Assembly (NCBI GenBank): GCA_009838735.1 | Contig: VXQZ01000033.1 | Span: 50,826-114,825 of the forward strand | Direction of reading: 5' to 3' | Source: Chloroflexota bacterium | GTDB lineage: Bacteria; Chloroflexota; Dehalococcoidia; Bin125 | Length of the DNA stretch: 64,000 nucleotides | In this document: piece by piece, positions 4,525 through 36,836 of the stretch | Position numbering within the stretch: position 1 is the first letter of the stretch | How the letters are laid out: every line of letters starts with the position of its first letter | The notes under the pieces: generated by a model | The model's database searches: none | Told to the model about the DNA's origin: nothing | What the model saw: only the letters and a program-made list of their open reading frames with translations | Translations under genes and position numbers: made by a program

Positions 4525-4800
4525 ATGGCGCTCGACAGACTTCGGTTCCACAGCATCCTCGTCCAGGAGATGAGCGCTCCGACGGAAACGGCTGAGCGTC
4601 TGGCTGAAGTCGTTGCCCAAGCCACCGATGAAGCCGTCACAGACGAGCAGTTCCAGACTCGAATGGACCTGACGGAAGCACGCCTGCTGGCGGATCACCG
4701 TGCCGAGATCAATCGCCTCCTCAAGTGGATGGTCGGGCTCGGTGTTGCCGTGGGCGGAGGGCTGATTGCGGTGATGGGAATGCTGGTCGCGAAGCTCTAA
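4525..4800 (+). CDS. DUF1640-like small coiled-coil protein with C-terminal transmembrane helix (paralogue 1 of 4)
   Basis: 91 aa; N-terminal ALDRLRFHSILVQE, central coiled coil, C-terminal LKWMVGLGVAVGGGLIAVMGMLVAKL; resembles DUF1640 architecture from memory. Confidence 0.6.
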   Translation: MALDRLRFHSILVQEMSAPTETAERLAEVVAQATDEAVTDEQFQTRMDLTEARLLADHRAEINRLLKWMVGLGVAVGGGLIAVMGMLVAKL

Positions 4801-4810
4801 CTGCGCAACC

Positions 4811-5266
4811 CTACTCGGTCGGTCGCTTGAGCATCATCCCCGTGCGCCGGCACTTGACCACCAGCTCGCCTCGTTGGTTGGTCCCTCGATGCTCGAAGAC
4901 CACGATCCCCCGATCGGGGCGGCTTCTCGATTCTCGCCGCTCGATCACTTCGGTTTCGCAGGTGATCGTGTCGCCGATAAAGACAGGATTGGGAAAGGTG
5001 GTCTCGTCGAATCCGAGATTGCCCAGCGTCGTACCCAGGGTCGTGTCGGCGACGCTCAGACCCACCGCCAGGCCGAGCGTGAAGATGCTGTTCACAATCC
5101 GCTGGCCGAACTGGGTGCTTCCCGCGAACTCGGCATCGAGGTGCAGTGGCTGACTGTTGTGCGTCAGCGCAGTGAAGAGGAGATTGTCGGCCTCGGTCAC
5201 GGTGCGCGAGGGCTCGTGCCGGATCACCAGACCCGGTTCCAACTCCTCGAACCACTTGCCGGGCAT
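4811..5266 (-). CDS. MaoC-like (R)-hydratase/dehydratase domain protein
   Basis: 151 aa hot-dog fold signature ([15 protein letters not shown]...[10 protein letters not shown]); GAGGA RBS. Confidence 0.8.
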
Positions 5267-5279
5267 GGGAGTCCTCGGC

Positions 5280-5990
5280 CTAGGCGAAGCGGGTCATGTC
5301 GTCGGCGGCGTACTGGGCGACGGCATGGTCGGCCGCGGCGGTGGTCTCCAGGCTCTCCAGCAAATCGGAGAGCTGGCCGGCCGGGATGGCGCAGGTCACT
5401 TCGGCGTTGGGCATCTGGGTGCGCACACGCGAGAGCTGGCAACCGACCGAGGCCGCCATTTCCCCGGCCTTGGCAATCGCGATGATGTGACACTGCGGCT
5501 TGCCCTCGATCCGCAGATCGGGGAACGCGTCGTGCAACACCATGAGCTGTCGCCCGGTGATCCTTAAGAAGACGACATCGGGCTCCGTCGGCGACTCGCC
5601 CAGTGGGCCGTAGACGACCTCTTGCGGCTGCTCTTCGACAACGGGAACGGCCATCGCCGCTTCGGGCGTGACCCAGCCTGATTCGAGCAGCGCGCCGACG
5701 TCGCCATTCTCCATCACATCCATCAAGCCGAGGAATCCGTGAGTGACCGAGCCGACTGAGCAGTTGGCGTGATCCTGGGCAACCGTCGAGAATGTCCGGT
5801 CGGTCGCGTGCATCCAGAACACGCAGCCGGCGGGCACTGCGCCCGTGCGGCCGTCGTCTGCCGGCGATGGCATGTTCGACTGGAAACGGTCGACGCCGCT
5901 GGCCGCATCGTGGAACGTGATCGCGAGCGGCTTGTTGGCCAGTCCGAGCGTGCCTTCGAGCTGATCAGAGAGTTCGGCCCAATTGGTCAT
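5280..5990 (-). CDS. DUF169 domain-containing protein
   Basis: 236 aa with DUF169-like conserved Cys/His pattern (recalled); start overlaps the stop of the upstream membrane-protein gene (ATGA), suggesting an operon. Confidence 0.6.
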
Positions 5991-7315
5991 ACGTGAGTTC
6001 CTTCCTCAGGAGTCGCGCCGGGCCGTTGAAAGGCCTCGCGCAGAGTGGGCGGGAAGAGCCGCCAGTGACTCGGCAACATCGCCGCCGCACAGCCAAGATA
6101 GATGACGCCGAAGATCCAGCGAATCAAGTTGTTTTCCTGAAAGAAGAACTGGCAGATCAACTGCGCCAGGAACACGCTGAGCAGCGCGAAGCCGGCGCGT
6201 GCCGTGAGCTGGCGATCGATGATCAGCATGACGCCGAAGACCGACTGCGCAGCAGTGATGAATATCTCCGCCACTTGTGTGTCGCTCGACGTGATTCCCG
6301 ACAGCGCGCCGCCGCCGGCGATGTAGGCGATCGGCACCGACGCGATCAGCAGCGTCCACTGGTTGACCTTGCTGGAGATGAGCATGTTGACGCCCATCCC
6401 TGCCGAGCCCCGCCAGACCAGATAGAGCGCCGCCAGGAACTCGGGAGACTCCGATGCGAGCGGCGCGATCCACTGGATCACGAAGAACTCGCCGATGCCG
6501 ACGTCACGCCCGACGTACTCGAGTCCGTGCACGAACGGCTCGGCAGCGAGCCCGATCACGATGGCCGAGTAGACGATGAAAAAGAGCACGACGGCGCGCC
6601 GCGGCCAGACCGGCAGCCGTCCGATCGCCTCGGCCGGACCTTCCAGTTCAGGTTCGCGGACCGGCGCGCGCGCGAGGCGAATCACGTACCAGAGAAACAG
6701 CACGCCGAGAATGACCGTGTCCTCGAGCGCGATGCGTCCCTTGGCGACGATGATGAACGAGTACAGCGTGGCGACGATCAAGATGCCAACGTCGAGCGTG
6801 ACGCCGCGCGGAAGGGTCAGTTCCGGCTCCGTGCCATCGTTAGGCCGTCCGCGCAGGTCTCGCCAGGCGTGACGGGCAGTGGAGGTGATCAGCTCGCGCG
6901 GACCCGCCGCCTTCCAGGCGAACAGGAAAATCACGGTCGCCCAGCCCACCCCGAGCAACAGCCGGTTGGCGCCGGTCATGTTTGCCAGGGCCAGGTTGGC
7001 CTTCTCCGAGAAACCCGAGAACGCCACCGGGTCGGACGCGTACTGTCCCGCCTCGTAGGCCAACAGTAGATCGACTGCGTACTCGGGCAGCACAGCGATG
7101 AATGCGACCAGCGCCACCGACAGCGCCGCCGGAATGTCATACTGCGACGCCTCCGCGCCGGAGGAGATCAGGAACGCCGCCGACAGGATCGCCAATCCGG
7201 AGATCGCCACCTCCGGGTACGTGTCCAGCTCAATCCCACCGAGTCGGAAGACCAGCGACGGAATCCCCGCCAGCACAGCCAGGATCAGCAGCGTCCACGG
7301 AGATCGAAGTCGCAT
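5987..7315 (-). CDS. Polytopic membrane protein, Ca2+/cation antiporter (CaCA)-like
   Basis: 442 aa, about 10 predicted TM helices, two internal repeats with alpha-repeat-like LPEYAVD / SESPEF motifs. Confidence 0.55.
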   Translation of the reverse strand: MRLRSPWTLLILAVLAGIPSLVFRLGGIELDTYPEVAISGLAILSAAFLISSGAEASQYDIPAALSVALVAFIAVLPEYAVDLLLAYEAGQYASDPVAFSGFSEKANLALANMTGANRLLLGVGWATVIFLFAWKAAGPRELITSTARHAWRDLRGRPNDGTEPELTLPRGVTLDVGILIVATLYSFIIVAKGRIALEDTVILGVLFLWYVIRLARAPVREPELEGPAEAIGRLPVWPRRAVVLFFIVYSAIVIGLAAEPFVHGLEYVGRDVGIGEFFVIQWIAPLASESPEFLAALYLVWRGSAGMGVNMLISSKVNQWTLLIASVPIAYIAGGGALSGITSSDTQVAEIFITAAQSVFGVMLIIDRQLTARAGFALLSVFLAQLICQFFFQENNLIRWIFGVIYLGCAAAMLPSHWRLFPPTLREAFQRPGATPEEGTHV

Positions 7316-7367
7316 CGAATCAGGACAAACAGGTTTCGACTGTCAGTCTCGGGCGCCGTTGCTCACG

Positions 7368-7784
7368 TTATGCCTCGGAGACATTGTCCAACCGTTCAAT
7401 CTGCTGGCGGAGCCGACTCATCAGGAGTAACCAAAGTGCTGCCTCATCCCGAGGCACGATGGACCGAACGTCATGGGAGTAAATGTTTCGGACTCCAGTC
7501 GTCACGCCCAACATCAGATATCGAAGGGACGCGTGCTCATTTCGCTCCTTTGCGGTCTGACGTTCATTGAAGGCCAATGACGGCTTGTCATCAGCAAGAA
7601 CTGACTGCACCAGGCTCTGTCCGTTCAGATCGTCTCTACCGCTCCGATCCGCGATTTCCGCGAGCAGGTCTTGTGCCTCATGACGGATCGCATCACGGTG
7701 AAACCCGCTGGCAAACAGCGATCTGGCGTGGCTAGTGATGCTCATCTCCGCGAGCGTGAACGCCACATCCGAGTCGTCGGTCAT
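7368..7784 (-). CDS. HEPN-like (Rx4H) protein, TIGR02391/Abi-like; candidate RNase toxin
   Basis: 138 aa; ERNEHASLRYLMLGVTTGVRNIYSHD contains R-x4-H; lower GC than surroundings; start codon overlaps the stop of the upstream gene (TGATG). Confidence 0.6.
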   Translation of the reverse strand: MTDDSDVAFTLAEMSITSHARSLFASGFHRDAIRHEAQDLLAEIADRSGRDDLNGQSLVQSVLADDKPSLAFNERQTAKERNEHASLRYLMLGVTTGVRNIYSHDVRSIVPRDEAALWLLLMSRLRQQIERLDNVSEA

Positions 7785-8428: not shown

Positions 8429-8454
8429 GGTTCCCTCCCGACTGCACAAGCGTA

Positions 8455-17395: not shown

Positions 17396-17470
17396 GCTAA
17401 CTCTCGGCGTTGGGCGACCGGCTATTCTGTATACTCAGTTTCGCAGTTAAGAATCGCTGAGGAGTTGGCC

Positions 17471-17689
17471 ATGGCCGAGGGTGACCCGTTCGAGGACTGG
17501 CTGGACATCGTCGAGGCGGCGAGGGAGCTGAACATCCATCCGCAATCCATGCGCCGGCTAATCAAGCAGGGCCGGGTCCCCGCCCGCCTCTACGGCGGCA
17601 AGTACCTCATCGAGCGAGACCAACTCCTCATGTTCAAGTCCAACTACGACCCCCGCCCCGGCCGCAAGCGCTCCCCTCGGCTGCTGTAG
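17471..17689 (+). CDS. Helix-turn-helix (excisionase/MerR-like HTH_17) DNA-binding protein
   Basis: 72 aa; ARELNIHPQSMRRLIKQGRVPARLYGGKYLIERDQL is a classic HTH_17 pattern; GAGGAG RBS 6 nt upstream of ATG. Confidence 0.8.
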   Translation: MAEGDPFEDWLDIVEAARELNIHPQSMRRLIKQGRVPARLYGGKYLIERDQLLMFKSNYDPRPGRKRSPRLL

Positions 17690-17701: not shown

Positions 17702-18109
17702 TTAGCCGAATGCAATGAGCAACCCTGAGACGAGCACCGTGGCGGAGAATCCCAGGCCGACGACTCCGATCACCCAACCGCGCAATTTTGCATCTCGTTC
17801 TTCTTGGTCTCGCGCGCGCTGGCGCTCACGTTCATCCCGTTCCCGCTCCCGCACATTGTTCTCTTCTCGGAAATCACTGATTTCCTTGCGAACATCGGCC
17901 ATGAACTGCGCTTGCTGAGCTGCAATCTCCGCTCGCTCAATCCGCCATTGTTCGATCAGCGCCTCCAGCGTGTCCTTACGCGCCAGCGGCTCCATGGCTT
18001 CATCGAGCAGTTCATCCGCGAAAACTGCGAGAGGCTCGGCCATCGATTCCGGGCAAAGGTGTTGGGTGATCAGCGAGTCACGTGTCTTGAGAACGTCGAT
18101 CGATGCCAT
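17702..18109 (-). CDS. DUF1640-like coiled-coil protein with C-terminal TM helix (paralogue 2, longer)
   Basis: 135 aa from the internal ATG (MASIDV) with GAGG RBS; Glu/Arg-rich coiled coil; C-terminal KLRGWVIGVVGLGFSATVLVSGLLIAFG. Confidence 0.55.
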   Translation of the reverse strand: MASIDVLKTRDSLITQHLCPESMAEPLAVFADELLDEAMEPLARKDTLEALIEQWRIERAEIAAQQAQFMADVRKEISDFREENNVRERERDERERQRARDQEERDAKLRGWVIGVVGLGFSATVLVSGLLIAFG

Positions 18110-18260
18110 AGGTTTCCTCGACCTGCTCACGAACGACTTCAACCACCTGGTCGGCCTTGTCTTCTTGTACCCACCCTCGCGCGATCGCTTCTCGCCTGAA
18201 GCGCGCGAGCGTCTCTTCAACCAGGCGCTCGGGCAGCGGACCGTCCACACGTCGCATCAC
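18078..18260 (-). CDS. Possible small (60 aa) charged helical protein overlapping the start of the previous gene
   Basis: ORF-track entry MMRRVDGPLPERLVEETLARFRREAIARGWVQEDKADQVVEVVREQVEETYGIDRRSQDT; overlaps 17702-18109 by about 30 nt in another frame; coding status unresolved. Confidence 0.3.
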   Translation of the reverse strand: MMRRVDGPLPERLVEETLARFRREAIARGWVQEDKADQVVEVVREQVEETYGIDRRSQDT

Positions 18261-18279: not shown

Positions 18280-20262
18280 TTAGTGCGCCGACGACGCCCC
18301 CTCGATGATCTCCTCGACCACGTGAGGCTCCGCCAACGTCGTCACATCGCCGACGTTTTCCGGCTCGCCCTCCGCGACCTTGCGCAAAATCCGACGCATG
18401 ATCTTCCCCGACCGCGTCTTCGGCAACCCGCCGACGAACTGGATCCGGTCGGGCGTCGCGATCGGACTGATCTCCGCCCGCACCTGTCGCTTCAGCTCGA
18501 CCGCCAGGTCAGGTCCGGGGTCGAAACCGTCCTTGAGCAGCACGTAGGCGTAGATGCCCTCGCCCTTGATCTCATGCGGATAGCCGACGACCGCCGCCTC
18601 AGCGCAACCGGCATGGCCGACGAGGGCGCCTTCAATCTCCGCCGTGCCCAGCCGGTGGCCCGAGACGTTGAGCACATCGTCCACCCGGCCGGTCAGCCAG
18701 TAGTAGCCGTCGTGGTCGCGGAATGAGCCGTCGCCGGTGAAGTACTTGCCCGGATACTGGACGAAGTACGTGTTGATGAATCGCTCGTGGTCCCCATAGA
18801 CCGTGCGCATCATCCCCGGCCAGCTCCGAGCCATGCAGAGCAGCCCGCTCTGCTGATTCCCCTCAAGCTCGTTGCCGTCCGGATCGACTAGCACCGGCTC
18901 GATGCCGAAGAACGGCAGTGAGGCCGAACCGGGCTTCATGTCGTTGGCGCCGGCCAGACCGGTCAGAATGTGCCCGCCCGTCTCGGTCTGCCAGTAGGTG
19001 TCCACGATCGAGCAGTGCCCGTCCCCGACGATTCCGTGATACCAGCGCCAGGCCTCGGGATTAATCGGCTCGCCGACGGTGCCGAGCACACGCAGGCTGG
19101 TCCGCTCGTGGACCTTGACCCACTCGTCGCCCTCGCGCATCAGGGCGCGGATCGCCGTCGGCGCGGTATAGAGGATGTTGATCCCCAGCCGATCGACCAT
19201 GTCCCAGTAGCGTCCCGCGTCGGGATAGGTCGGAATCGACTCAAACATCACCGAGGTCGCCCCGTTGCCCAGCGGTCCGTAGACGATGTAGCTGTGCCCG
19301 GTGATCCAGCCGACGTCGGCCGCGCAGCAGTAGATGTCGCCCTCGCGGTAATCGAACGTGTAGCGATGGCTCAGCATGGTGAACAGCAGGTACCCGGCCT
19401 GCGTGTGCAGCACGCCCTTGGGTTTCCCCGTCGACCCCGACGTGTACAGGATGAACAGCGGATCCTCGGCGTCGAGAATCTCGGGCTCGCACTCTTCCGA
19501 CTGGTGAGCAACGGTCTCGTGCCACCAGACGTCGCGGCCGTCCGTCATCGTCACGTCGCCGCCGGTGTGCTGATGGCAGATGACGAACTCGACGCAGTCG
19601 ACGCCGGCAGCGTCAAGCTGGTCCATCGCCGCGTCAACGTTGGCCTTGAGTGGCACCGTCCGCCCGCCGCGCTTGCCCTCGTCCTGCGTGATCACGGCCT
19701 TGCAGAGCGAATCCTCGACTCGGTCGGCGATCGCCGTCGCCGAGAATCCACCGAAGATCACCGAGTGAATCGCGCCAATCCGAGCGCAGGCCAGCATCGC
19801 CGCCACGACCTCAGGAGTCATCCCCATGTAGATCGCGACCCGGTCGCCCTTGCCGACGCCGCGGCTACGAAGCTCATTCGCCAGCCGGCAGACCTCGGCG
19901 TGCAGTTCGCGGTACGAAATCGACTCGTTGTCCGCCGGCTCGTCGCCCTCCCACAGGATCGCCGTCTGGTCGCCGCGCTCTGCCAGGTGCCGGTCGAGAC
20001 AGTTGACGGACACATTCAGCTTCGCCCCAAGGAACCAGGCGATCTTGCCCTCAGCCAGGTTCTCCTCGCTCAGCGTGTGCCACGGCTCGACCAGATCGAG
20101 ATGTTCATTCGCCATCTCCGTCCAGAAGGCGTCCGGCTCGTCCAGCGATCGCCGCCACAGCGCTTCATAACCCTCGCGCGACACAACCAGCGCGCCCTCG
20201 CGCACATTGTCAGGCGGCGAGTACGTCTCGTTGACCGGCATGGCAGCGTCTGGGGTAGTCAT
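18280..20262 (-). CDS. acs: Acetyl-CoA synthetase (AMP-forming), acetate--CoA ligase
   Basis: 660 aa with the canonical Acs N-terminus and AMP-binding motifs ([11 protein letters not shown]). Confidence 0.95.
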
Positions 20263-20384
20263 GTCAGCATCCTCGTCTACACAGGCGAAGTCGTCATGCC
20301 AAAAATCCTAACGCGCCCCGACATTCCCCGTCCCCTCCATCGAGCGGGGACCAGCTCCGCGCCGAACGCCTTCCTCACCCGTAA

Positions 20385-20432
20385 CCGTCATTCCCGCGCC
20401 CTCTCCGTCATTCCCGCGCCCGGCGCGGGAAT
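20385..20432. promoter_or_regulatory. Two direct copies of ccgtcattcccgcgccc followed by the inverted copy ggcgcgggaat, forming an ~11-bp-arm palindrome
   Basis: Read in sequence upstream of acs (minus strand) and just downstream of the stop of 20509-20790; could be an operator or a terminator. Confidence 0.5.
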
Positions 20433-20508
20433 CTCGCCCCATTCCGCAGAGACGACAAATCATCCGACTTGGCCACTGACGCAAATCGTGGCCCGACAGC
20501 TTGGACCC

Positions 20509-20790
20509 TTATCCTCCCCGAGCGAGCAGCGCACCCAGGGTCGCCAGCACCGCCGCGAACCCGATCCCGATCCCCCACATCAACAGCTTCAGCTTCGCGT
20601 CCACGTCGGCCCGCAAATCGTCGATCCGGCCATTGACCTCAGAACGCAGATCACCCATTCGTTCGTTGATGTCACCCATTCGTTCGTTGAAGTCGGAACG
20701 CAGATCGTCGATGCGCTGGTCTATTCGCGTGAGCGCATCACTCACACCAACATTCCCATCCACTTCGCCCGAGCGCTCACTCGACACCAT
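20509..20790 (-). CDS. DUF1640-like coiled-coil protein with C-terminal TM helix (paralogue 3)
   Basis: 93 aa; tandem heptad-like NERMGDINERMGD encoded by a 21-nt tandem DNA repeat at 20650-20691; C-terminal KLLMWGIGIGFAAVLATLGALLA. Confidence 0.6.
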   Translation of the reverse strand: MVSSERSGEVDGNVGVSDALTRIDQRIDDLRSDFNERMGDINERMGDLRSEVNGRIDDLRADVDAKLKLLMWGIGIGFAAVLATLGALLARGG

Positions 20791-20862
20791 GCGGACCTCC
20801 CGACATCATTCAACGCTCGCGATGCAACCACAGTGTAGCTTTCCACCGGTCACCATGCACCC

Positions 20863-21117
20863 TCACCGCCCATCACCCGACCCGCCGGGAACCAGCCCGT
20901 CATCCGACAGCGCGTCCGCCGTCATCTCCAACACTCCGAACCAGAACGCCGCCGTCGACCCTGGAAAGTCGTGAATCAACTCCCGGATCAGACTCCGCCC
21001 GTCAGGCATGTCGCCATAGGCCAGCATGATCACGATCAGCGAGTCCACCGCCTCGCGATAAATCTTCTCAACCTCCGCTTGCTCCTGTAGATCCTCCAGG
21101 TTGCGCAGCTCCGACAT
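20863..21117 (-). CDS. Hypothetical small protein (84 aa)
   Basis: Strong GAGAGGAG RBS; co-directional and immediately upstream of the DUF1640-like gene; no domain recognised. Confidence 0.5.
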   Translation of the reverse strand: MSELRNLEDLQEQAEVEKIYREAVDSLIVIMLAYGDMPDGRSLIRELIHDFPGSTAAFWFGVLEMTADALSDDGLVPGGSGDGR

Positions 21118-21248
21118 CCGACGCTCCTCTCTTATGCAGCGTGCCCTCGGCCAACGGACGTTCGCCCCGACACACTTGGCTCTCCATTCAGAACATATTC
21201 ACTATATGGTAAGGCGAACATCTGTGCTCTCCGTGAAAGGAAACAACG

Positions 21249-21965
21249 ATGCAGATCTCACCCCGACGACGACAACGCGCCCTCAGAGTCCACGAGCTGC
21301 GACAGAGAGGACGTTCGCTACGCAACATCGGCAAACAACTCGACATCTCTCACTCCACGGTGCTCGCCGATCTCAAGCTGATCGAAACGCGCTGGAGCGA
21401 GCTCACGCGGCAATCCACCGACGACTTCCAGCTCGAACAACTCGCCCTGATGCAGCGGCGCCTGCGCATGCTCCTCCGGCGCGACCTGCTCAAGGAGTTC
21501 GGGCGGCTCAGTCCCATCGACTTCGTCCGCATCCACGAGGCCCACAACCAGGAGCTCGCCATCCTCCTCCGCGAGACGCGGCGACTCGCCGCTGAGCTCC
21601 GCGAACGAGCCGATCTCCGTGATCTCGATCCCGCCGAGCTCCCTCCGGAACTCGACTTCCCCGAGGAAGAACTGGTCTCGGCTCTCAAATCGACAAGACC
21701 GGCGAAATCGACCGAGTCGGCCAGAGCCGCAAGGGCAGGAGAGCCGACCACCACTCACCACGGCCTGCCAAAATCTTCCAAACCCAACCACTTCAACCAC
21801 CCAATTCCCCGCAAAACACTGGAAATCGCGTCATCGACCGCGCCAGAAAAAATCTCCAACCAACCGCCCGCGGACCTCACCCCCGAACAGCTCAACCAAC
21901 AAGCCGAGACCTTCCTCCGCAACTACAACAGACAGGAGCTCCAACCCACCGCCGCCGGCGGCTAG
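21249..21965 (+). CDS. HTH DNA-binding protein with long Pro/Ser/Thr-rich disordered C-terminal tail
   Basis: N-terminal LRVHELRQRGRSLRNIGKQLDISHSTVLADLKLI (sigma-70 region-4 or IS-type HTH-like); AGGAAA RBS; AT-rich promoter-like region at 21118-21248. Confidence 0.6.
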   Translation: MQISPRRRQRALRVHELRQRGRSLRNIGKQLDISHSTVLADLKLIETRWSELTRQSTDDFQLEQLALMQRRLRMLLRRDLLKEFGRLSPIDFVRIHEAHNQELAILLRETRRLAAELRERADLRDLDPAELPPELDFPEEELVSALKSTRPAKSTESARAARAGEPTTTHHGLPKSSKPNHFNHPIPRKTLEIASSTAPEKISNQPPADLTPEQLNQQAETFLRNYNRQELQPTAAGG

Positions 21966-22016
21966 GTGCGGGACCTACCGGCCGCGCAACATGCGCTAAC
22001 CCTCTCTATCTTCTTC

Positions 22017-22058
22017 GCTCCCCCTCGCAGGGGGAGCTGCCGAAGGCTGAGGGGTCCC
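22017..22058. repeat. Single copy of the family-A GC-rich palindromic repeat unit
   Basis: gctccccctcgcagggggagctgccgaaggctgaggggtccc, near-identical to the units at 16378-16502. Confidence 0.75.
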
Positions 22059-22212
22059 GTTCCCGCCGAACGAACGCGTCGTTGTACCCGCCTTCCCTCT
22101 CCCGTCCACTCTTGTTCCGAGAGCGTGTTTGCTCCCTCGTAGCCTGCCCCCCACCCGACGCGGTGATACGATGCGCAACAGGGCACACAGAGCCGAGTCG
22201 AGAGGTCCCACG

Positions 22213-22557
22213 ATGGCGCAGCAGGAACCGTTTCAGCGAATCTCCGTGGAGCAAGCGGAAGAGAAGCGACAGGCCGGCGTAACCCTGGTCGACACCCGCG
22301 AACTGGACGAGTACCAGGATGGCCACGCCGCCGGCGCCCCACTGATGCCGCACATGTCCGTCATGACCCGCGCCGACGAACTCGAGCAGATCGCCGGCGG
22401 CAAGGACGAACCGATCATGTTCATCTGCGCCAAGGGCCAGCGCTCCGCCGTCGCCTGCGAGTTCGCCGCCGCGCTCGGCTTCACCGACCTCTACAACGTC
22501 GAGGGCGGCACCGACGCCTGGATCGCCGCCGGCTTGCCGATCGAGCATCCCGCCTGA
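22213..22557 (+). CDS. Single-domain rhodanese-like protein
   Basis: 114 aa from the ATG preceded by GAGAGG; active-site loop FICAKGQRS. Confidence 0.8.
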   Translation: MAQQEPFQRISVEQAEEKRQAGVTLVDTRELDEYQDGHAAGAPLMPHMSVMTRADELEQIAGGKDEPIMFICAKGQRSAVACEFAAALGFTDLYNVEGGTDAWIAAGLPIEHPA

Positions 22558-22596
22558 CGTGCGCCCGACGAGCCGCGCCGCGAGCGGTCCACACCA

Positions 22597-23175
22597 ATGC
22601 TGAGCGGATTAAGCGGCACCCAGCGCTACGCGCTGTTCGTCCTCCTGGTCGTGATCGTGGTCGTCATCTACCTCTTCGTCTCCGGCGGACTTGGCGATCT
22701 GATCGGCGGCGATGACGAGGACCAACAGGTCACCGAAGAGCCGACCAGCGCCCCGGAGGCCCTGAGAACCGTCGCCGTCGAGTTCGGCGAGTCCCAACAG
22801 GTCGGCCCGGTCGAGGTCTCCATCATCGGCCTCACCTTCCCCGACCAGATCCGCGCCGAGGGCCTCTGGCGAACGCCGGCCCAGCGCTTTGCCGCCGTCC
22901 ATCTGACCATGACCAACCGCTCCAAGCAGGCCGTCGAACTGCCCCTCGATGGACTCCAACTCGTCACCGTTGACGGACGCGCCTACCTCGCCGATGCCGC
23001 CCTCTCCCTCGGCCACGCCCGAGCCGCCGAGTCGGTCGCATACTCACCGCCGTTAATCCTTCAGCCCCAGCTCACGATCACCGTCGTCGCCGTCTATGAC
23101 ATCCCCCTCGACGCCTCCGGCCTCCAACTCCGCGTCCGCGGCGGCTGGACCGACTTCGCCCTGTTCGAAGAATGA
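22597..23175 (+). CDS. DUF4352 domain-containing membrane-anchored protein
   Basis: N-terminal TM helix, acidic linker, then a beta-rich domain matching the DUF4352 pattern (recalled). Confidence 0.6.
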   Translation: MLSGLSGTQRYALFVLLVVIVVVIYLFVSGGLGDLIGGDDEDQQVTEEPTSAPEALRTVAVEFGESQQVGPVEVSIIGLTFPDQIRAEGLWRTPAQRFAAVHLTMTNRSKQAVELPLDGLQLVTVDGRAYLADAALSLGHARAAESVAYSPPLILQPQLTITVVAVYDIPLDASGLQLRVRGGWTDFALFEE

Positions 23176-23182
23176 ACCAGCG

Positions 23183-23848
23183 ATGACCATCCTCATGTTC
23201 GACATCGACGGCACCCTCTCCCTCTCGCAGGGCGCCGGCACCCTGGCGATGACCCGGACCTTCAAGGAACTCTGGGGCATCAGCAACGCCCTGGAAGGGA
23301 TGAACTTCGCCGGCCGATCCGATAGCTGGATCGTTCCCACCGCGCTCGCCAACCAGGGCCGCGAGTGCTCCCCCGAGGACCTCGCCCGCTTCATCGACCA
23401 TTACGTGCCGCAACTGGACCGGGCGCTGCCGCGACGTCGGTCGCGGCTCTGCCCGGGAGTGTCGGAGCTGTTGGACGTCCTCAGCCGCCTGACCGTCACG
23501 GTCGGCCTCGGGACCGGCAACTTCCGCCGCGCCGCCGAGGCCAAGCTCGCCCCACTCGGCGTCTGGGACTACTTCATCGACGGCGGATTCGGCGACGACC
23601 ATCCCGACCGTACCGAACTGCTCGCCGCCGGCCTCGAACGCCTCAGGCAACACGCCGACGACGGCTCCGACGTCGTCGTGATCGGAGACACCGCTCACGA
23701 CATAGAGGCCGGCCACGCGATCGGCGCGCGAGTCGTCGCCGTCAGAACCGGCTACTCGGAACCGGGCGACCTCGATGAGGCCGACGTCACACTCGACGAC
23801 CTGTCCGACCTGCAGGAGTCCCTGGCCGCGTTGCTGGGAGTAGCCTGA
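23183..23848 (+). CDS. HAD-superfamily hydrolase (phosphoglycolate-phosphatase-like)
   Basis: Begins MTILMFDIDGTL (HAD motif I); later GDTAHDIEAG (motif III). Confidence 0.85.
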   Translation: MTILMFDIDGTLSLSQGAGTLAMTRTFKELWGISNALEGMNFAGRSDSWIVPTALANQGRECSPEDLARFIDHYVPQLDRALPRRRSRLCPGVSELLDVLSRLTVTVGLGTGNFRRAAEAKLAPLGVWDYFIDGGFGDDHPDRTELLAAGLERLRQHADDGSDVVVIGDTAHDIEAGHAIGARVVAVRTGYSEPGDLDEADVTLDDLSDLQESLAALLGVA

Positions 23849-23852
23849 GCTC

Positions 23853-24521
23853 ATGTCAACCGGGCTGATCGTCGGCATCATCATCATCCTGCTCGTGGTC
23901 GGCGTGCCAATCTTGCAGGCGCTCATCCGCGGCGCTCAGCGCCGCCGATCGCTGGCCGCCGAAGGCGTCCCCGCCTTGCGCGACGCCGGACTGCGACCCG
24001 AAGAACTGCCCTCTGGCCTGTCCCGTCAGACCGCCGAGGCCGTCACCTCCGAGGACATCGCGCTGGCCGACGACAACCCGGAAGCCACGATCACCCAGCT
24101 CGACGACGCAGGCCGGATCATCGGCTATCGCGAGAGTTTCCGCGAGCCGCGATCCTGGGGCGAATTCATGGACTGGGTCCTGGCCCAGTCAATCTTCCGC
24201 AACCGGCAACATCGCCGGGTCGAAGTCGAACTGACCAGATACGACTCGTCTGAGCACGCCAATGAGGCGCTGCAGGCCGATCCACCCTCAGACCTCGGCG
24301 ATGCAGGCGTCAGCGTCGAAGACGCTGGTGAGCGTGGCGGACTCATGGCGCGCGAATGGATCCGCACAGAGCACGGCGACACGGTGCAGCGCATGCTGGA
24401 GTTGCGCTGGGCCTCCGGCGATGTGCTCGGCGTCGTCCGTGGCGACTCTGAGCCCTCCGGAGCGCTCGACGATGAGGAAGTGCGTCGCCTCGCCGGGTTG
24501 GTCAAGGCCCGCCTCGGATGA
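23853..24521 (+). CDS. Hypothetical membrane-anchored protein
   Basis: 222 aa; N-terminal TM (GLIVGIIIILLVVGVPIL); no domain recognised. Confidence 0.5.
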   Translation: MSTGLIVGIIIILLVVGVPILQALIRGAQRRRSLAAEGVPALRDAGLRPEELPSGLSRQTAEAVTSEDIALADDNPEATITQLDDAGRIIGYRESFREPRSWGEFMDWVLAQSIFRNRQHRRVEVELTRYDSSEHANEALQADPPSDLGDAGVSVEDAGERGGLMAREWIRTEHGDTVQRMLELRWASGDVLGVVRGDSEPSGALDDEEVRRLAGLVKARLG

Positions 24522-24991
24522 ACGCTGAGCAACGCGATGAACTCCTTGCCCGCTACCGTGCGGCGCCGAAGCTGTTGGCCGACTCGGTCGCCGGATCATC
24601 AATCGCCCAGCTCGACGGCGCGCCGCCCGAGCCAGGCTGGACCGCGCGCGAGAACGTGCATCACGTGTCCGACATCGCAATCATGGCCGGTCTGCGCCTC
24701 CGCCTAATGCTGCTCGACATCGAGGTCGAAATGTGGCCGATCGACGGCGACACCATGCAGAAGCGGCTACGCAACGACCAGCGGCCGATCGGTCCGGCGC
24801 TGAGGACGGTGGACGGGTTGGTCGAGTCGGCCTGCTCGATCCTCGGCTCTCTAAGCGAAGAAGAGTGGACCCAGCCGCGTCCCATGCCGGTGGCCCGATC
24901 CCGTAGCGTCGAGGAATGGCTTGAAGCCAGCGTGCGGCACATCGAACAACACGTCGATCAGATCCGCTACGCCCTCACCGGCACCTGCTAG
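24518..24991 (+). CDS. DinB_2 (DinB/YfiT-like four-helix-bundle metal-dependent) family protein, copy 1
   Basis: 157 aa; conserved His positions (HHVSD ... HIEQH) typical of DinB_2. Confidence 0.65.
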   Translation: MNAEQRDELLARYRAAPKLLADSVAGSSIAQLDGAPPEPGWTARENVHHVSDIAIMAGLRLRLMLLDIEVEMWPIDGDTMQKRLRNDQRPIGPALRTVDGLVESACSILGSLSEEEWTQPRPMPVARSRSVEEWLEASVRHIEQHVDQIRYALTGTC

Positions 24992-25001
24992 GACGTGCCA
25001 G

Positions 25002-25478
25002 ATGAGCCAACATCCCGCCGAACGTCCAGAACTGTTGGTTGCGTACCTCGAGTCGACCTCCGACATCGAACTCGTGCTCGGGGAACTGTCCGAGGATCAG
25101 TTGGAGTCGCGCGAACGCCCGGGTGAGTGGTCGGTCCGCCAGATCGTCCATCACCTCGCCGACAGCGAAGTCGCCGACGCCATGCGCCTGCGCCAGATGC
25201 TCGCCCATGACTCGCCCCTCATCGTCCCCTTCGACGAACTGCTCTTCACCGAGCGGTTGCACTATGACCGCGAGATCGAATCCTCGGTAGCGACCTTCTT
25301 CGCGCTGCGCGCCTCCAGCGGCGCGATCCTCGAACAGATCTCGGACAACGACTGGTCGCGCTCCGGCCGCCACGAGGAGCACGATCGCTACACGGTTGAG
25401 ATCCTGGTCCAGAAGAACATCGAGCACGACCACGCCCATCTGGAGCAAATCCGGCGGGCGCTGGCGTCAGCGGATTGA
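25002..25478 (+). CDS. DinB_2 family protein, copy 2
   Basis: 158 aa from the internal ATG; VRQIVHHLADSE ... EHDHAHLEQI. Confidence 0.65.
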   Translation: MSQHPAERPELLVAYLESTSDIELVLGELSEDQLESRERPGEWSVRQIVHHLADSEVADAMRLRQMLAHDSPLIVPFDELLFTERLHYDREIESSVATFFALRASSGAILEQISDNDWSRSGRHEEHDRYTVEILVQKNIEHDHAHLEQIRRALASAD

Positions 25479-25504
25479 CAACGACGGAGAATCGGAGACC
25501 GATC

Positions 25505-26083
25505 ATGGCCACGCCGCCGACCTACACGCCGGACGATGTCGAGGCGCTGCTTGCGAAGATGGCCCTGGAGCGCGGCAAGCTAATCACCGCCGCCGAGGGG
25601 CTGCGCGGCGATGACGCCGACCGCGTGCCCGTCGACGCCGTCGGCGAGGAACAGTGGACGGCCAAGGAGCAGCTCGCCCATCTGATGGAAATGGAGCGCG
25701 GCTACATCTCCTGGTGCCGAGCCGCGCTGGTCGAGAGCGGCGCCGACGTCAGCGCCGTCCGCGGCATTCCCGTCGACGTTCCGATTGAGCATGCGCCTGA
25801 CCACACTGTCCGCGAGCTGTTGGACACGTTGATCGAGGAACGCGAGCGGACCAACCACTTCATCCGCTCACTCCTGCTGCAACAGTTCTCTCACACTGCT
25901 GTCACGCCCGGCTTCGGCGAGCTGACAGTAATGCAGTATCTGCGCTCCTTCTACCGCCACGACCGGCAGCACACGGCCCAGATCGAGGGTCGGCAGTCGG
26001 ACTACCAGCCGAACTTCGCCTCGGGCGTTGAGCCAAATCAGCGGCAGATGCGCATTGACCAGGTGGCTCAGCGGGCTGAGTGA
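25505..26083 (+). CDS. DinB_2 family protein, copy 3
   Basis: 192 aa from the ATG preceded by GGAGA; EQLAHLMEME ... DRQHTAQI. Confidence 0.6.
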   Translation: MATPPTYTPDDVEALLAKMALERGKLITAAEGLRGDDADRVPVDAVGEEQWTAKEQLAHLMEMERGYISWCRAALVESGADVSAVRGIPVDVPIEHAPDHTVRELLDTLIEERERTNHFIRSLLLQQFSHTAVTPGFGELTVMQYLRSFYRHDRQHTAQIEGRQSDYQPNFASGVEPNQRQMRIDQVAQRAE

Positions 26084-26101
26084 TCGGAGTAGCATCGGCC
26101 C

Positions 26102-26527
26102 ATGACAGAACCAGAAGAGGAAGTCGTGCAACCGGACTCGGTGACCGACTGGGCCGAGTGGGGTCGCCAGCGTGGAGGTCGCTGGGGCAAGGAGTTCAGC
26201 GGCAAGGCTCAGAACTGGCGCAGCGAGGCCTGGTCCTGGAGCCATCCGCAGGACCGGCCCACAGGGCCCTGGTGGAGCCGCCTGATCTGGGGCATCGTCG
26301 GGTTTCCGGTCTACCTGCTTGGCAGCGTCGTCTTCCTCGGACTGGTCATCGTCGGCGCTGCCGCCGCCCTGTTGGGCGGAGCAATGCTGGTCTGGTTCGC
26401 CTGTGGAGCCGGTGGCGCCGCCTTCGCATCGCGTAGAGGCTGGCCCGGACAACTGGGCGGACTCCTGGGCTTCGCGCTCGGACCGATCGGCCTGCTGATC
26501 ATCCGCCGACTGCCGGAGCGGGCATGA
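26102..26527 (+). CDS. Hypothetical membrane protein (Trp-rich N-terminus, two TM helices)
   Basis: 141 aa; hydrophobic segments VGFPVYLLGSVVFLGLVIVGAAAALLGGAMLVWFA and LGGLLGFALGPIGLLII. Confidence 0.5.
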   Translation: MTEPEEEVVQPDSVTDWAEWGRQRGGRWGKEFSGKAQNWRSEAWSWSHPQDRPTGPWWSRLIWGIVGFPVYLLGSVVFLGLVIVGAAAALLGGAMLVWFACGAGGAAFASRRGWPGQLGGLLGFALGPIGLLIIRRLPERA

Positions 26528-26533
26528 TGACCG

Positions 26534-26965
26534 CTACAGGCAGTCGGCCCGCCGCAACGTCGCCCGAATCGACGGGTCCAGCGCATCGATCGCGCGCGAC
26601 AGTTGAGTCGCAATGCGAACCGCGTTGAGGCCGAAGGCAAGCGGGTTGGCAGGCTCCTCAGCAGGCTGTTCCTCAGCCACACCGACGACGAAGTCCAGCG
26701 TCTTGATTGAAGACCGGTGGAACTCCGCCAGCTCGTCCGGCGGCTCCACAGCTCTCAAGCGCTGCAACGAAGGCTCTCCGAGGCGGACGAGGTCGCCCCA
26801 GGTAACGGACTCCGGCTCAATCAGTGTCCGGGCGCTGGCGATGCCATCAGCGCAGAACTCGGCGTACTCCGAGACACTCAACCGCTCACTCGAAGCGCAC
26901 GCCGCGACCAGGATGCCAACGCCCATCGATGGCACAATGAACACGATGAACAGTGAGCGAGTCAT
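26534..26965 (-). CDS. Putative lipoprotein, unknown function
   Basis: Signal peptide with lipobox (ILVAAC) when started at the internal ATG. Confidence 0.5.
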   Translation of the reverse strand: MTRSLFIVFIVPSMGVGILVAACASSERLSVSEYAEFCADGIASARTLIEPESVTWGDLVRLGEPSLQRLRAVEPPDELAEFHRSSIKTLDFVVGVAEEQPAEEPANPLAFGLNAVRIATQLSRAIDALDPSIRATLRRADCL

Positions 26966-27049
26966 CCGTCGACCTGATACGCCTTGACAGACCCGGTTCG
27001 TCATCCAGCCCCGTCCCCACTATCTTGACCGTGAAGCGGGAGGCTGTGT

Positions 27050-33884: not shown

Positions 33885-34838
33885 ATGCCCTCAATCAACA
33901 CATTGCACGGAGAAGTAGATACATCCGAGCTGGGTCGGACGCTGATCCACGAGCACATCGGGATCCGATCTCCCGGGATCTCCGAGAACTGGCCGGAGTT
34001 GTGGGACGAGGCGGGCTGCGTGGCTTCGGCGGACGAGAAGCTCAACGCGCTCCAGCAGCGCGGCGTCAGCACGGTGGTTGACCTCTCGACGGCGGATCTG
34101 GGCCGTGATATGGGCTTCCTTCAGAAAGTGTCGGAGGTGACGTCGATCAACGTCGTGCTCTGCACCGGGATCTACTGGTTGCGCTCGATGTATTGGCGCG
34201 GACGGCCGGCCGAGATGATGACGGAGGTGTTTGTCAGGGACATCACTGAGGGAATCGCCGGCACGGGCGTCAAAGCCAACATCATCAAGCTGGCTTCGGA
34301 CGAGCAGGGCGGCGGGGTTGACCGCTACAACGAGAAGTGCTTGCGTGCCGGGGCGCGTGCGCATCGCGCAACCGGCGTGCCGATTGCGACGCACAACGGT
34401 CCGCCTGAACTGGGTGCGAAACAGCAGGATGTCTTCGAGGACGAGGGCTGCGACCTGTCGCGGATCGTGATCGGCCACGTCGGCGATACGGCGGACACGG
34501 ACTATCTCAAGTCGCTGATGGACCGGGGCTCGTACGTCGGGCTCGATCGCTTCGGACTGGACCAGATCCTGCCCTTCGACGACCGAGTGAATACGGTCGT
34601 CAAGCTCGCGGCCGACGGCTACACCGAGCGCATGTTGCTGGCCCACGACGCCTCTTGCTGTCTGGACTGGATTCCCGACATCGATGCAATGCGGCAGGCG
34701 CAGCCGAACTGGCACTTCAATCACATCTCCGACGACGTCGTTCCGGCTCTGTTGGAACGCGGCGTGACGCAGGCTCAGGTTGATCAGATGCTGATTGGCA
34801 ATCCGCGAACCCTGTTCGAGAATCAAGGCGCGTACTAG
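33885..34838 (+). CDS. Phosphotriesterase-related (PTE/aryldialkylphosphatase family, TIM-barrel amidohydrolase) protein
   Basis: LIHEHI metal-binding start and a later conserved His/Asp pattern. Confidence 0.85.
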   Translation: MPSINTLHGEVDTSELGRTLIHEHIGIRSPGISENWPELWDEAGCVASADEKLNALQQRGVSTVVDLSTADLGRDMGFLQKVSEVTSINVVLCTGIYWLRSMYWRGRPAEMMTEVFVRDITEGIAGTGVKANIIKLASDEQGGGVDRYNEKCLRAGARAHRATGVPIATHNGPPELGAKQQDVFEDEGCDLSRIVIGHVGDTADTDYLKSLMDRGSYVGLDRFGLDQILPFDDRVNTVVKLAADGYTERMLLAHDASCCLDWIPDIDAMRQAQPNWHFNHISDDVVPALLERGVTQAQVDQMLIGNPRTLFENQGAY

Positions 34839-36482
34839 ATGGGCGCAACGGCGCTGGAACCTGCCGACCTCCTGTCGGCGGCACGCGCTGGATTTGCCGG
34901 TGCGCCGCTTCAGGACTCTCCGGGTGAGGTGGCCGCGCGGGCACGACTGTGGCGCAACGGCCACCTTGTCGCAGAGGCGGAAGTGTCGGCCTTCGATGGC
35001 CTATCTGCCGCTCAGGCAGCCGGAACAGCGCTGCAGGCGGCCTTGGTCGACGAAAGCGATCAGCCCGGCGATGCACTGAGCATCGAAGTGGAAGCCGAAC
35101 GCGTTTCGCGAAACCCCGAGGGGCTGATCGGGCTGATCCAGACGCCGCTTGCGGGCCGGCATGGGCTCATTCTTCGAGACGGCGACCAGGTCGCCCGGGG
35201 ATGGCCGTTTGAAGCCTTGCGCACCGACGGACGCACGGCGGCCTGGGTGAAGCAACTGAATCGCAGCGTTCGGCGTCCTGGCGCGAGGCTGGCGGCGAGC
35301 ACCTCTGTGGAAGTCTTCACGACGGTCGAAGCGATCGGCAGCGTTGCGCCGGCGGACGGAGAACGGATCTCTGCCCGTGCCGGCGGCTTCCGGCTGGTCG
35401 AGATGGCGGAGGTGCTGCCCGACCGGCTGACCGGCTCGGCTCTGCAGGCGGCGGCCTGGCTGCTGCGGCATCAGCGGCCCGACGGTTCGTTCGCGTATGA
35501 GTACGCGCAGTCGGCCGCCGGCGAGCAGGGCGACTGGACGCCGTACGACCAGCTCGTTCGGCAATGCGGTTGCGCCTGGGCGATTGCGATGGTCGCGCGA
35601 TTGTCGCGAGATCGGAAGATCGGCGAAGCGGCCGCGACCGCAATCAGCGGCATCCTCGAGCGTCACCTCAGACGGGATGGACCGGGTCGGCTGTTCTACC
35701 TGCGAGACATGTACGGCGAGGCCAAGCTGGGCGCTCCGCCGCTGCTGTTGCTCGCGATCACGGAGATGGGTTCGTCGCTGCGGCTGCCTCGGGAGACCGT
35801 CGACCAACTGACGGCATCGCTGTTAGCGGTGCAGGCGGCCGACGGCCACTTCGGCACCAGGGCCCGGGGGATGGAACTGGAGGGCTCCGAGACCTACTAC
35901 GCCGGGCAGATCGTCCTGGCCCTGGCCAGGCTGTTCGGCGTCCGCAAGCGGCCGCGACTCCGCTCAGCCGTGGAACGAGCCTTGAAGCACTACCAGGCGC
36001 GCTGGCAGGACGAGGATGAACGCGATCTGTCCTTCACGACCTGGATGATCCAGGCCTGCGATCAGTGGCACGCCCTGGCGGACGACGAACTGTCCCGGGA
36101 CTACGCCTACGAGATGGCCGACTGGGCGCTGGAGGAGCAACACGGCGAGGACTGTGAGAACCCGCTCTGGGTGGGCGCGTTCCAGAACACGCCGGGGATT
36201 GGGACAGCGGCGTACAGCGAGGGGATCGCGAGCGCGCTCTCAATTGCCCAGCGGGCGGGTAATGAAGAACGGATCGAACGGTATCGGACGGCGCTGTTGC
36301 TCAGCATGCGATTCCTGCTGTCGCTCTCGGTGGACGGTCCCGAGCATGCGCTGGTCGGCGGCAGTGAACACGTCGGCGCGGTTCGGTCGGCGCTGCATCG
36401 CTCGGGGCTGCGCTGCGACAACGCGCAGCACTACCTGATGTCGATGCTGCGCGCTCGGGCATTGTGCTGGGAGAGCGAATAG
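34839..36482 (+). CDS. Hypothetical two-domain protein; C-terminal alpha/alpha-toroid (prenyltransferase/terpene-cyclase-like) repeats
   Basis: 547 aa; repeated Q-x-x-DGSF/HF-like motifs (QRPDGSFAYEY, QAADGHFGTR); start codon abuts the PTE stop (TAGATG). Confidence 0.5.
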   Translation: MGATALEPADLLSAARAGFAGAPLQDSPGEVAARARLWRNGHLVAEAEVSAFDGLSAAQAAGTALQAALVDESDQPGDALSIEVEAERVSRNPEGLIGLIQTPLAGRHGLILRDGDQVARGWPFEALRTDGRTAAWVKQLNRSVRRPGARLAASTSVEVFTTVEAIGSVAPADGERISARAGGFRLVEMAEVLPDRLTGSALQAAAWLLRHQRPDGSFAYEYAQSAAGEQGDWTPYDQLVRQCGCAWAIAMVARLSRDRKIGEAAATAISGILERHLRRDGPGRLFYLRDMYGEAKLGAPPLLLLAITEMGSSLRLPRETVDQLTASLLAVQAADGHFGTRARGMELEGSETYYAGQIVLALARLFGVRKRPRLRSAVERALKHYQARWQDEDERDLSFTTWMIQACDQWHALADDELSRDYAYEMADWALEEQHGEDCENPLWVGAFQNTPGIGTAAYSEGIASALSIAQRAGNEERIERYRTALLLSMRFLLSLSVDGPEHALVGGSEHVGAVRSALHRSGLRCDNAQHYLMSMLRARALCWESE

Positions 36483-36524
36483 CCACGGTTTTCCAAAGAG
36501 AACAGTTGTACCGGTATCATATGG

Positions 36525-36836
36525 GTGCAGTTGAGAGAGTCTGCGTTGGCGATTCGCATCGACCGTCCGAGATTTCGAGACATCTTTGCTCGTATGGAGA
36601 TCCCGCAGGCTCCGGCGGACGACTTCGTTGACGCCGTTGAGGACACGGTCAACGAGGGACGTGACGAACTTGCGACGAAAGATGATCTACGTGCTCTTGC
36701 AGCCGAACTCATGCAGGACGCTGCCGAGCGAGAGGCTCGGATTCTGCAGAATCAGCTCGTCATGGTCGGCGTGATCCTTGGAGCCATGGCAATCGCAACA
36801 GGCGTCATCATCGCGGTTGTCACGCTCTCTGCTTAG
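36525..36836 (+). CDS. DUF1640-like coiled-coil protein with C-terminal TM helix (paralogue 4)
   Basis: 103 aa from GTG; N-terminal ALAIRIDRPRFRDIFARM parallels paralogue 1; C-terminal LVMVGVILGAMAIATGVIIAVVTL. Confidence 0.55.
   Translation: MQLRESALAIRIDRPRFRDIFARMEIPQAPADDFVDAVEDTVNEGRDELATKDDLRALAAELMQDAAEREARILQNQLVMVGVILGAMAIATGVIIAVVTLSA

Follow-up and report, generated by a model that had tools for sequence, protein, structure and literature searches.

Three probable remote relatives of DUF1640/CCDC90-like proteins and one head-less look-alike in a stretch of Dehalococcoidia DNA

Four small tail-anchored proteins in the window

Examining a 64,000-nucleotide stretch of a Chloroflexota (Dehalococcoidia) genome (contig VXQZ01000033.1, positions 50,826 to 114,825), hereafter the window, we found four small open reading frames (ORFs), P1 to P4, whose products all end in a single membrane helix. 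Profile comparisons indicate that three of them, P1, P2 and P4, are in all probability true, though very remote, paralogues inside the DUF1640/CCDC90-like superfamily (PF07798), and the fourth, P3, shares their stalk-and-anchor build and has no head. Overall, a known family has expanded here in a lineage-specific way and evolves fast; one look-alike accompanies it, and most of what the window shows is ordinary. The four genes are as follows; L with a number denotes a locus from another genome, and P with four digits a related protein.

P1, 4525..4800, plus strand: 91 amino acids (aa); two-helix head (about residues 3-35), degenerate neck AVTDEQ, short stalk, C-terminal membrane helix
P2, 17702..18109, minus strand: 135 aa; head (residues 1-42), neck LARKDT (42-47), long stalk, C-terminal membrane helix
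P3, 20509..20790, minus strand: 93 aa; no head, a heptad/hendecad coiled-coil stalk of RIDDLR-type units, C-terminal membrane helix
P4, 36546..36836, plus strand: 96 aa from the TTG at 36546; head, neck LATKDD (42-47), short stalk, C-terminal membrane helix

The original prediction described four scattered paralogues with a shared N-terminus, a charged coiled coil and a C-terminal K-x-L-x-W-x-x-G-x-G helix, each in a different neighbourhood. All four ORFs lie where it placed them, except that the start of P4, given as 36525, is better moved to 36546, and the neighbours it named are present: tRNA-Pro (4330-4406), an HTH_17 gene (17465-17689), acs (18280-20262) and a Bac_luciferase gene (36833-37846). 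The shared N-terminus holds for P1, P2 and P4 and fails for P3, and the helix motif is found loosely, as K/R-L..W..G.G, in P1, P2 and P3 and is missing from P4.

All four genes are represented in NCBI under a "Chloroflexi bacterium" metagenome-assembled genome (MAG) as hypothetical proteins: F4038_07190 (P1), F4038_08970 (P2), F4038_08985 (P3) and F4038_09100 (P4). The NCBI form of P4 is the same 96-aa version from 36546; the TTG start is preceded by GAGAGAG and gives a protein that opens with MAIRIDRPRF, an N-terminus shared by the P4 relatives P0154 and P0158. The public P2 begins at residue 23 of our version, giving 113 aa, and the public P3 at residue 16, giving 78 aa. We favour the longer forms of both, because their full N-termini are conserved in homologues; in P2, residues M1, I4, L7, R10 and C19 are invariant across 40 sequences.

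In each of the four proteins, the membrane helix is a hydrophobic stretch of at least 19 residues within the last 32, followed by 1-4 residues. When every stop-to-stop ORF of at least 50 aa in the window was screened for a hydrophobic segment among its final 32 residues, the ORFs below 200 aa that passed were P1 to P4 and two ORFs antisense to larger genes. Thus, the tail-anchor architecture of the four ORFs is real and rare within the window.

Remote homology of P1, P2 and P4 to DUF1640/CCDC90-like proteins

A four-way alignment of P1 to P4 has 4 invariant columns, and pairwise Smith-Waterman comparisons with the membrane helix removed give z values of 1.2-3.3, too weak to decide; the shuffle test is also biased, as shuffling destroys the membrane helix. 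The number of relatives that could be collected differs among the four: nine for P1, 53 for P2, and for P3 one close relative (P0010) plus many repeat-driven matches. In a word-indexed search with P3 and P4 joined as one query, the repeat words of P3 dominated, and P4 relatives surfaced only in an exhaustive profile search. Its query was a profile combining P4 with the P1 relatives, its target 1.84 billion representative proteins, and it gave 79 matches at E<=1e-3. These are P1-like and P4-like proteins and, at the weak end of the list, short bacterial proteins that carry the classical DUF1640 head, TFDTLKF..AG..QAEA..LATKxDL..W..G. Among the 80 aligned sequences (78 of the 79 matches plus P1 and P4), 26 match PF07798, with a best E of 8.7e-12. 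P4-like relatives match it in register from profile position 1, weakly (E 0.003-0.06). Among PDB sequences, the broad profile matches best to the head of human CCDC90B (E 0.0099); the entry, 6h9m, is a crystal structure containing 3 chains.

Profile-profile alignment with hhalign links the three groups to one another and to the canonical DUF1640 set (probability and E-value):

P1 group vs P4 group: 99.3%, E 2e-20
P1 group vs canonical DUF1640: 98.7%, E 2.4e-16
P4 group vs canonical DUF1640: 99.1%, E 6.6e-19
P2 group vs P4 group: 97.6%, E 3.4e-12
P2 group vs canonical DUF1640: 95%, E 3.6e-8

Because membrane helices and coiled coils inflate profile-profile scores, we repeated the comparison with the heads only, using the first ~45 residues without stalk or membrane helix and, as null, 25 column-shuffled target profiles:

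P2 vs P4: score 39.4, null 9.5 +- 2.1
P2 vs canonical: score 29.1, null 7.9 +- 1.2
P1 vs canonical: score 33.8, null 8.5 +- 2.2
P4 vs canonical: score 53.2, null 7.7 +- 1.7

Five of the six head pairs score 29-61 and the P2-P1 pair 18.3, with shuffled nulls of 8-10. For P1, P2 and P4, these head-only tests exclude convergence.

Head, neck, stalk and anchor

The AlphaFold2 (AF2) monomer models of P1 and P2 share one topology, a two-helix head, a break and a single long helix ending as the membrane anchor. In P1, helices are predicted at 5-16 and 20-35, with a break at 36-39 and a helix from 40 to 90 (mean predicted local distance difference test score, pLDDT, 82.9); in P2, helices at 6-15 and 21-42 are followed by a break at 43-44 and a helix from 45 to 134 (pLDDT 84.2). 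Where head and stalk meet, DUF1640 proteins have a beta-layer neck, which carries the motif [aliphatic]-A-T-K-[polar]-[D/E] (Hartmann et al. 2016, PMC4786415); both models show their helix break just there. P4 has a perfect copy, LATKDD; P3 has none, and some P1 orthologues have LATKQD or LVTKQD. Counted strictly, the motif is present in 9/20 P4-like, 4/17 P1-like, 0/51 P2-like and 11/21 canonical sequences.

Per-column identity is high in the head and poor in the stalk, and the stalk of P2 has a peculiar membrane-proximal part:

P2 ER-rich segment ENNVRERERDERERQRARDQEERDAKLR, 17780..17863, minus strand: membrane-proximal, residues 83-110, 71% charged

Within it, a 22-residue run (87-108) has no bulky hydrophobic residue and only two alanines. 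The lengths of P2 homologues, ranging from 135 to 170 aa, equal 135+7n in 47 of 51 cases. Judged by its composition and by these length steps, the membrane-proximal stalk of P2 looks like an ER-rich spacer that varies by 7 residues at a time among orthologues and resembles a single-alpha-helix spacer. As to orientation, the absence of a signal peptide and the positive residues before the membrane helix suggest that the soluble part of these proteins is cytoplasmic.

An HMM (hidden Markov model) built only from DUF1640-type proteins outside the window, run on all window ORFs of at least 40 aa, found P4 (1.6e-13), P1 (1.5e-12) and P2 (1.2e-4) and nothing else, the set behind it having been drawn from our own profile search and so being independent of P2 and not fully of P1 and P4. 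It also detects the P2-type paralogues of L027 (1.5e-11). The partial dependence of this set is one of several points that weigh against placing the three proteins in the family. In the Pfam scan, none of P1 to P4 matches PF07798 at E<=10, and the NCBIfam scan of the four found no family. A profile of P1 relatives and P4 alone, run against PDB sequences, did not reach CCDC90B. Moreover, P1 (AVTDEQ) and P2 (LARKDT) have degenerate forms of the neck motif, and much of the P2 stalk is without a hydrophobic core, so that there may be no coiled coil there.

The gathering score of PF07798 is 33.5 bits, and short bacterial proteins with a canonical DUF1640 head reach only 24-29 bits on this model. 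The DUF1640-like label of the original prediction is thus upheld for P1, P2 and P4 by remote-homology methods only, the direct PF07798 check having failed for all four. Among sub-threshold Pfam matches, P2 hits DUF2951 (PF11166) at E 0.0018. A Foldseek comparison of the P1 model with the PDB gave no match below E 1, fold searches being uninformative for such small helical models.

Conserved positions and fast-changing sequences

Mapping the genes onto related genomes, we found that P1, P2 and P4 occupy fixed positions. A genome scan recovered 18 P1-type loci, all in Dehalococcoidia MAGs, and in 20 loci the P1-type gene invariably comes after tRNA-Pro, flanked by conserved CMD/hydrolase and MaoC genes. 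The P2-type context, running from acs through orf60 (a small gene overlapping P2, described below) and P2 to HTH_17, ATP-grasp_5 and CoA-ligase genes, is likewise conserved, and the P4 orthologue of L008 has the same setting of PTE, 498-aa, P4 and LLM (Bac_luciferase-type) genes.

The genes themselves change quickly at these positions. Between genomes, flanking proteins are 70-100% identical, compared with 37-52% for P1, 63% for P4 and 56% for P2. L011, the closest genome, matches the window at 79-91% identity in the DNA around P1, and inside the P1 gene only the 105 nucleotides (nt) encoding the head align. Compared with L011 5900-6582, the P1 locus (window 4425-4820) behaves like a hypervariable cassette, with two tandem copies in L011 and one here.

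Tandem copies recur elsewhere: L002 has three P1-type genes (85, 92 and 96 aa) and a 245-aa paralogue, L008, L011 and L023 have two each, and L027 has three P2-type copies; at related loci, tandem copies span 85-264 aa. The presence of four copies in 64 kb had been called unusual, but between one and four copies, frequently as tandem genes, are seen in related Dehalococcoidia loci that span 12-20 kb, and the number is typical. A fifth copy, present in L001, was looked for at the left edge of the window and is not present there. P1, P2 and P4 were inherited vertically, and the family is expanded and fast-evolving in this lineage, the marine Dehalococcoidia.

On a larger scale, the cumulative GC skew of the window has a minimum at about 25-26 kb with a sign change (window ~20000-27000), which probably reflects gene orientation. 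No DnaA-box cluster was found at the skew switch near 26 kb, and a replication origin there is improbable.

P3, a head-less protein in a variable region

P3 has no head domain and is not matched by the canonical DUF1640 HMM. Its hydrophobic residues are regularly spaced in a 3-4 / 3-4-4 pattern (3-4-3-4-4), and its coding sequence contains a recent repeat:

P3 internal tandem duplication, 20651..20694, minus strand: 21-nt unit, 2.1 copies, 95% match, encoding the heptads NERMGDI / NERMGDL

This duplication shows recent growth of the stalk by repeat expansion. Besides P0010 (110 aa, 61% identity), relatives of 63 aa are found in L029 and L030.

The position of P3 is variable. P3 lies between orf84 and acs in this genome only and is absent from the equivalent site of L007, L027 and L028. 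A relative in L006 sits among several Uma2-family genes, and in L029 the 63-aa relative comes immediately after an IS1595-family transposase, with a DDE_Tnp_1 transposase nearby (L029 3935-4894 and 2241-2996). P3 is accessory, and P3-type genes occupy variable regions. Around P3 itself, we found no terminal inverted repeats or target-site duplications that would mark an insertion, only internal repeats.

Two further features were noted nearby. Beside orf84 and P3 lies a 238-aa ORF (21249-21965, plus strand) with a weak HTH_38 match only and an unusual composition, having a GC skew of -0.24 and an AT skew of +0.2; it is missing from the syntenic regions of L007, L027 and L028 and is probably a recent insertion. 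The 246-nt spacer between P3 and acs contains a separate 20-nt tandem pair (CCGTCATTCCCGCGCCC...) at 20385-20424.

A small charged coiled coil followed by a C-terminal membrane helix arises easily, and P3 could be an unrelated RIDDLR-repeat protein, in which case P3, and with it the whole idea of four paralogues, would reflect convergent architecture. Consistent with this are the missing head and the lack of a canonical HMM match, and hhalign connects P3 to the other families at just 54-80%, over stalk and membrane helix only. Moreover, RIDDLRADV-type repeats are found in proteins of quite different topologies, the database matches of P3 are deltaproteobacterial proteins bearing signal peptides, and P3 is accessory whereas P1, P2 and P4 are syntenic. 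However, the membrane helix of P3, KLLMWGIGIGF...LLARGG, is closely like the P1-type RLLKWMVGAGV...VMRGG, head-bearing paralogues of the same lineage carry RxDxRF-type stalk repeats like those of P3, and distant deltaproteobacterial relatives of P3 align, at E 1e-5 to 1e-6, with positions 97/115-173 of PF07798, where the stalk and the membrane helix lie. We hold an unrelated origin of P3 to be somewhat less likely than not. We regard P3 as a protein of stalk and anchor without a head, which is either derived by truncation or an analogue. It is not placed in the family, so the claim of four paralogues stands for three, and this also counts against a single common reading of all four genes.

Promoters of P1 and P4 and the question of LexA

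Upstream of P1 and P4, we found a shared element close to the start of each gene:

P1 24-nt element GTTCTCTTTAGAGAACAGAAGTTC, 4478..4501, plus strand: core GAAC-N4-GTTC (4490-4501) over the -35 region; candidate operator
P1 -10-like hexamer TAGGCT, 4513..4518, plus strand: 6 nt upstream of the ATG
P4 24-nt element GTTTTCCAAAGAGAACAGTTGTAC, 36488..36511, plus strand: second copy, upstream of P4, with core GAAC-N4-GTAC
L008 element GTTCTCTATTGCGAACGCCCGTAC, L008 9941-9964: equivalent place upstream of the P4 orthologue

TAnnnT stands exactly at -12..-7 in 18/20 P1-type loci (L001, L002, L004, L009-L026) and is shifted by one base in the other 2. Because it lies at -12..-7 from the ATG, the transcripts of P1-type genes are very probably leaderless. 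The element itself, as GTTYNC-N6-GNAC-N4-GTTC, is found at -47/-48 in 12/20 P1-type loci, the other 8 having none. The more degenerate pattern GTTYNC-N6-GNAC-N4-GTWC has 13 matches in 397 kb of sequence, 12 of them upstream of P1- or P4-type genes. The short intergenic region of the P1 promoter is also occupied by the divergent tRNA-Pro promoter, with a conserved AGCGTA/TACGCT. A promoter of the extracytoplasmic function (ECF) sigma type was considered for the GAAC element and rejected, the sigma-70-like TAnnnT -10 being conserved and the spacing unsuitable.

In Firmicutes and Actinobacteria, the LexA motif is GAAC-N4-GTTC, variants of it occur in Chloroflexi/Dehalococcoides, and half-site changes of the GCAC/GTAC type usually abolish LexA binding (PMC4951493). 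P1 and P4 might accordingly belong to a DNA-damage (SOS) or stress regulon, the palindrome being a LexA operator and the proteins damage-induced membrane factors, such as modulators of division or of the envelope. A perfect core, the only one in the window, is placed 24-35 nt ahead of the leaderless start of P1, the same core stands at a fixed distance from the start in L001/L016 and L010, a core with one mismatch precedes P4 and its L008 orthologue, and the 24-nt pattern is almost exclusive to P1- and P4-type genes in the 397 kb. Against this, a mean of 0.99 perfect matches per 64 kb is expected by chance and the window contains one. In most orthologues the first half-site is GCAC or GTAC, or the element is absent; the core coincides with the expected -35 position and may be plain promoter sequence; and the element is missing at P2 and P3. 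For the stress association that the original prediction suggested, the LexA-like palindrome at P1 and P4 is the one hint. We consider control by LexA unlikely. Such control concerns regulation and can coexist with the explanation of the proteins as stalk proteins.

A small gene overlapping P2

Directly upstream of P2 lies a second small gene:

orf60, 18078..18260, minus strand: last 32 nt overlap the start of P2

Orthologues of 59-63 aa with the same overlap are found in every genome examined (L007 9763-9954, L027 5850-6032 and L028 5853-6032), and L028 has an additional 91-aa relative. Like P2, orf60 diverges quickly, with 40% identity where acs has 95%. It has no match in Pfam, PHROGs or PADLOC. 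It is possible that orf60 is a translationally coupled partner of P2.

The question of a selfish or phage-derived origin

The original prediction also raised selfish spread, and the genes could be phage-derived small membrane proteins, such as holin/XhlA-like lysis proteins or cassettes of the toxin-antitoxin type, scattered around the genome. Several features would fit: P1 adjoins a tRNA gene and P2 an excisionase-type HTH_17 gene, the orf60-P2 overlap resembles a two-gene cassette, the genes evolve fast and vary in copy number, one P3 relative directly follows a transposase, some DUF1640-annotated genes lie in prophage remnants (PMC5291501), and there are weak sub-threshold matches to DUF2951 and XhlA. 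However, P1, P2 and P4 are flanked by conserved housekeeping genes in many genomes, with no integrase or phage genes, and the HTH_17 gene is 89-100% conserved and syntenic. Two scans of 2.9 million viral contigs found no relatives, and PHROGs and PADLOC gave nothing significant. Conserved synteny and the lack of viral relatives and of PHROG or PADLOC matches thus counter selfish spread for P1, P2 and P4, where we hold it to be highly improbable, and leave it possible for P3 only.

Proposed arrangement and meaning

DUF1640/CCDC90-like proteins are conserved from bacteria to mitochondria, and the role of MCUR1 and CCDC90B is still debated. To our knowledge, function is known for no prokaryotic DUF1640 member. 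We consider it probable that P1, P2 and P4 are divergent, lineage-specific DUF1640/CCDC90-like proteins that would act as tail-anchored, cytoplasm-facing, oligomeric scaffolds or spacers. Because no prokaryotic member has a tested function, the scaffold role rests on the mitochondrial relatives, which is a further point against this assignment.

Having no signal peptide, the proteins would sit tail-anchored in the cytoplasmic membrane, with the last ~22 residues as the anchor and with head and stalk in the cytoplasm. The stalks would oligomerise, probably as trimers, as solved for CCDC90B. The conserved head would then be held at a fixed distance from the membrane and there bind a partner, so that the protein serves as a scaffold or spacer. 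In such an arrangement, the head would be strongly constrained, and the stalk would be free in sequence and length, changing by heptad or hendecad duplication; this freedom would account for the speed of divergence, for tandem copies that differ in length and for the misses by Pfam. P3 might co-assemble with the head-bearing proteins or act alone, and orf60 is a candidate partner of P2. From the lack of a signal peptide and from the relatives we infer the topology, the oligomeric state and the scaffold function, and the mechanism itself, the presentation of a head at a set distance from the membrane, is offered as tentative.

A bolder version would have the Dehalococcoidia copies form a co-regulated, hypervariable set of tail-anchored "rulers", in which a constrained head sits on stalks that change quickly in length and sequence at fixed loci, a LexA-like operator over a leaderless promoter switches the P1 and P4 types, the paralogues including P3 mix into hetero-oligomers, and orf60 and P2 make up a partner module. 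We think this quite improbable; if true, prokaryotes would have in this set their own equivalent of the MCUR1-CCDC90B scaffold, one responding to DNA damage or stress.

Current family models miss whole subfamilies, as the window shows. Because one bacterial lineage keeps many copies at fixed loci, with a conserved head and a varying stalk, it provides a natural series in which the binding partner of the head and the importance of stalk length can be studied. The practical gain is modest, consisting of corrected starts for P2, P3 and P4, a family for three hypothetical proteins, and leads in the leaderless promoter, the 24-nt element and orf60.

Comparison with known systems

Among small phage-type proteins, the XhlA (PF10779) and DUF2951 (PF11166) families are like the window proteins in being small, with a coiled coil and a C-terminal anchor, and P0010 matches XhlA at E 0.13. 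They differ in that no match is significant and that the genes described here lack both phage context and viral relatives and keep their place in the chromosome.

Besides P0010, the closest database relatives of P3 are deltaproteobacterial proteins of the form PRITDREIVERLTRLEEGQ - (NKRIDDLRAEMN)n - membrane helix - tail (P0011-P0085), some of them labelled DUF1640 by NCBI. Both have RIDDLRA(D/E) repeats followed by an (L/F)xWxxG membrane helix, a likeness confined to low-information repeats. Unlike P3, the deltaproteobacterial proteins have an N-terminal signal or anchor and a tail of ~45 residues past the membrane helix, and their stalk is probably extracellular.

Residues 83-110 of P2 can be compared with single alpha-helix (SAH) spacers of the ER/K type, which they resemble in charge, in a predicted continuous helix and in 7-residue length steps. 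This likeness is by composition only: the P2 segment repeats R/E/D/Q rather than E/K, and it could still pack within a trimer.

The family PF07798 itself (CCDC90-like, formerly DUF1640) includes human MCUR1 and CCDC90B, yeast Put6/Put7 and short bacterial proteins. MCUR1/CCDC90B and yeast Put6/Put7 are matrix-facing, hetero-oligomeric scaffolds of the inner membrane (PMC7519068; bioRxiv 10.1101/2025.10.14.682030). The window proteins differ from this family in their head consensus, which is MALDRLRFHNILV / MAIRIDRPRFR / MSSIDVLxxR and not TFDTxxF, in being far shorter than the eukaryotic members, and in the coreless ER-rich segment of P2. They share with it the order of parts, from the head through neck and stalk to the membrane helix at the C-terminus; the neck of P4, LATKDD, fits the published motif (PMC4786415), and by profile-profile comparison the heads of P1, P2 and P4 are homologous to the family head. 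The predicted cytoplasmic face of their soluble part corresponds to the mitochondrial matrix, and genomes hold several paralogues each, a parallel to the hetero-oligomerising MCUR1/CCDC90B and Put6/Put7.

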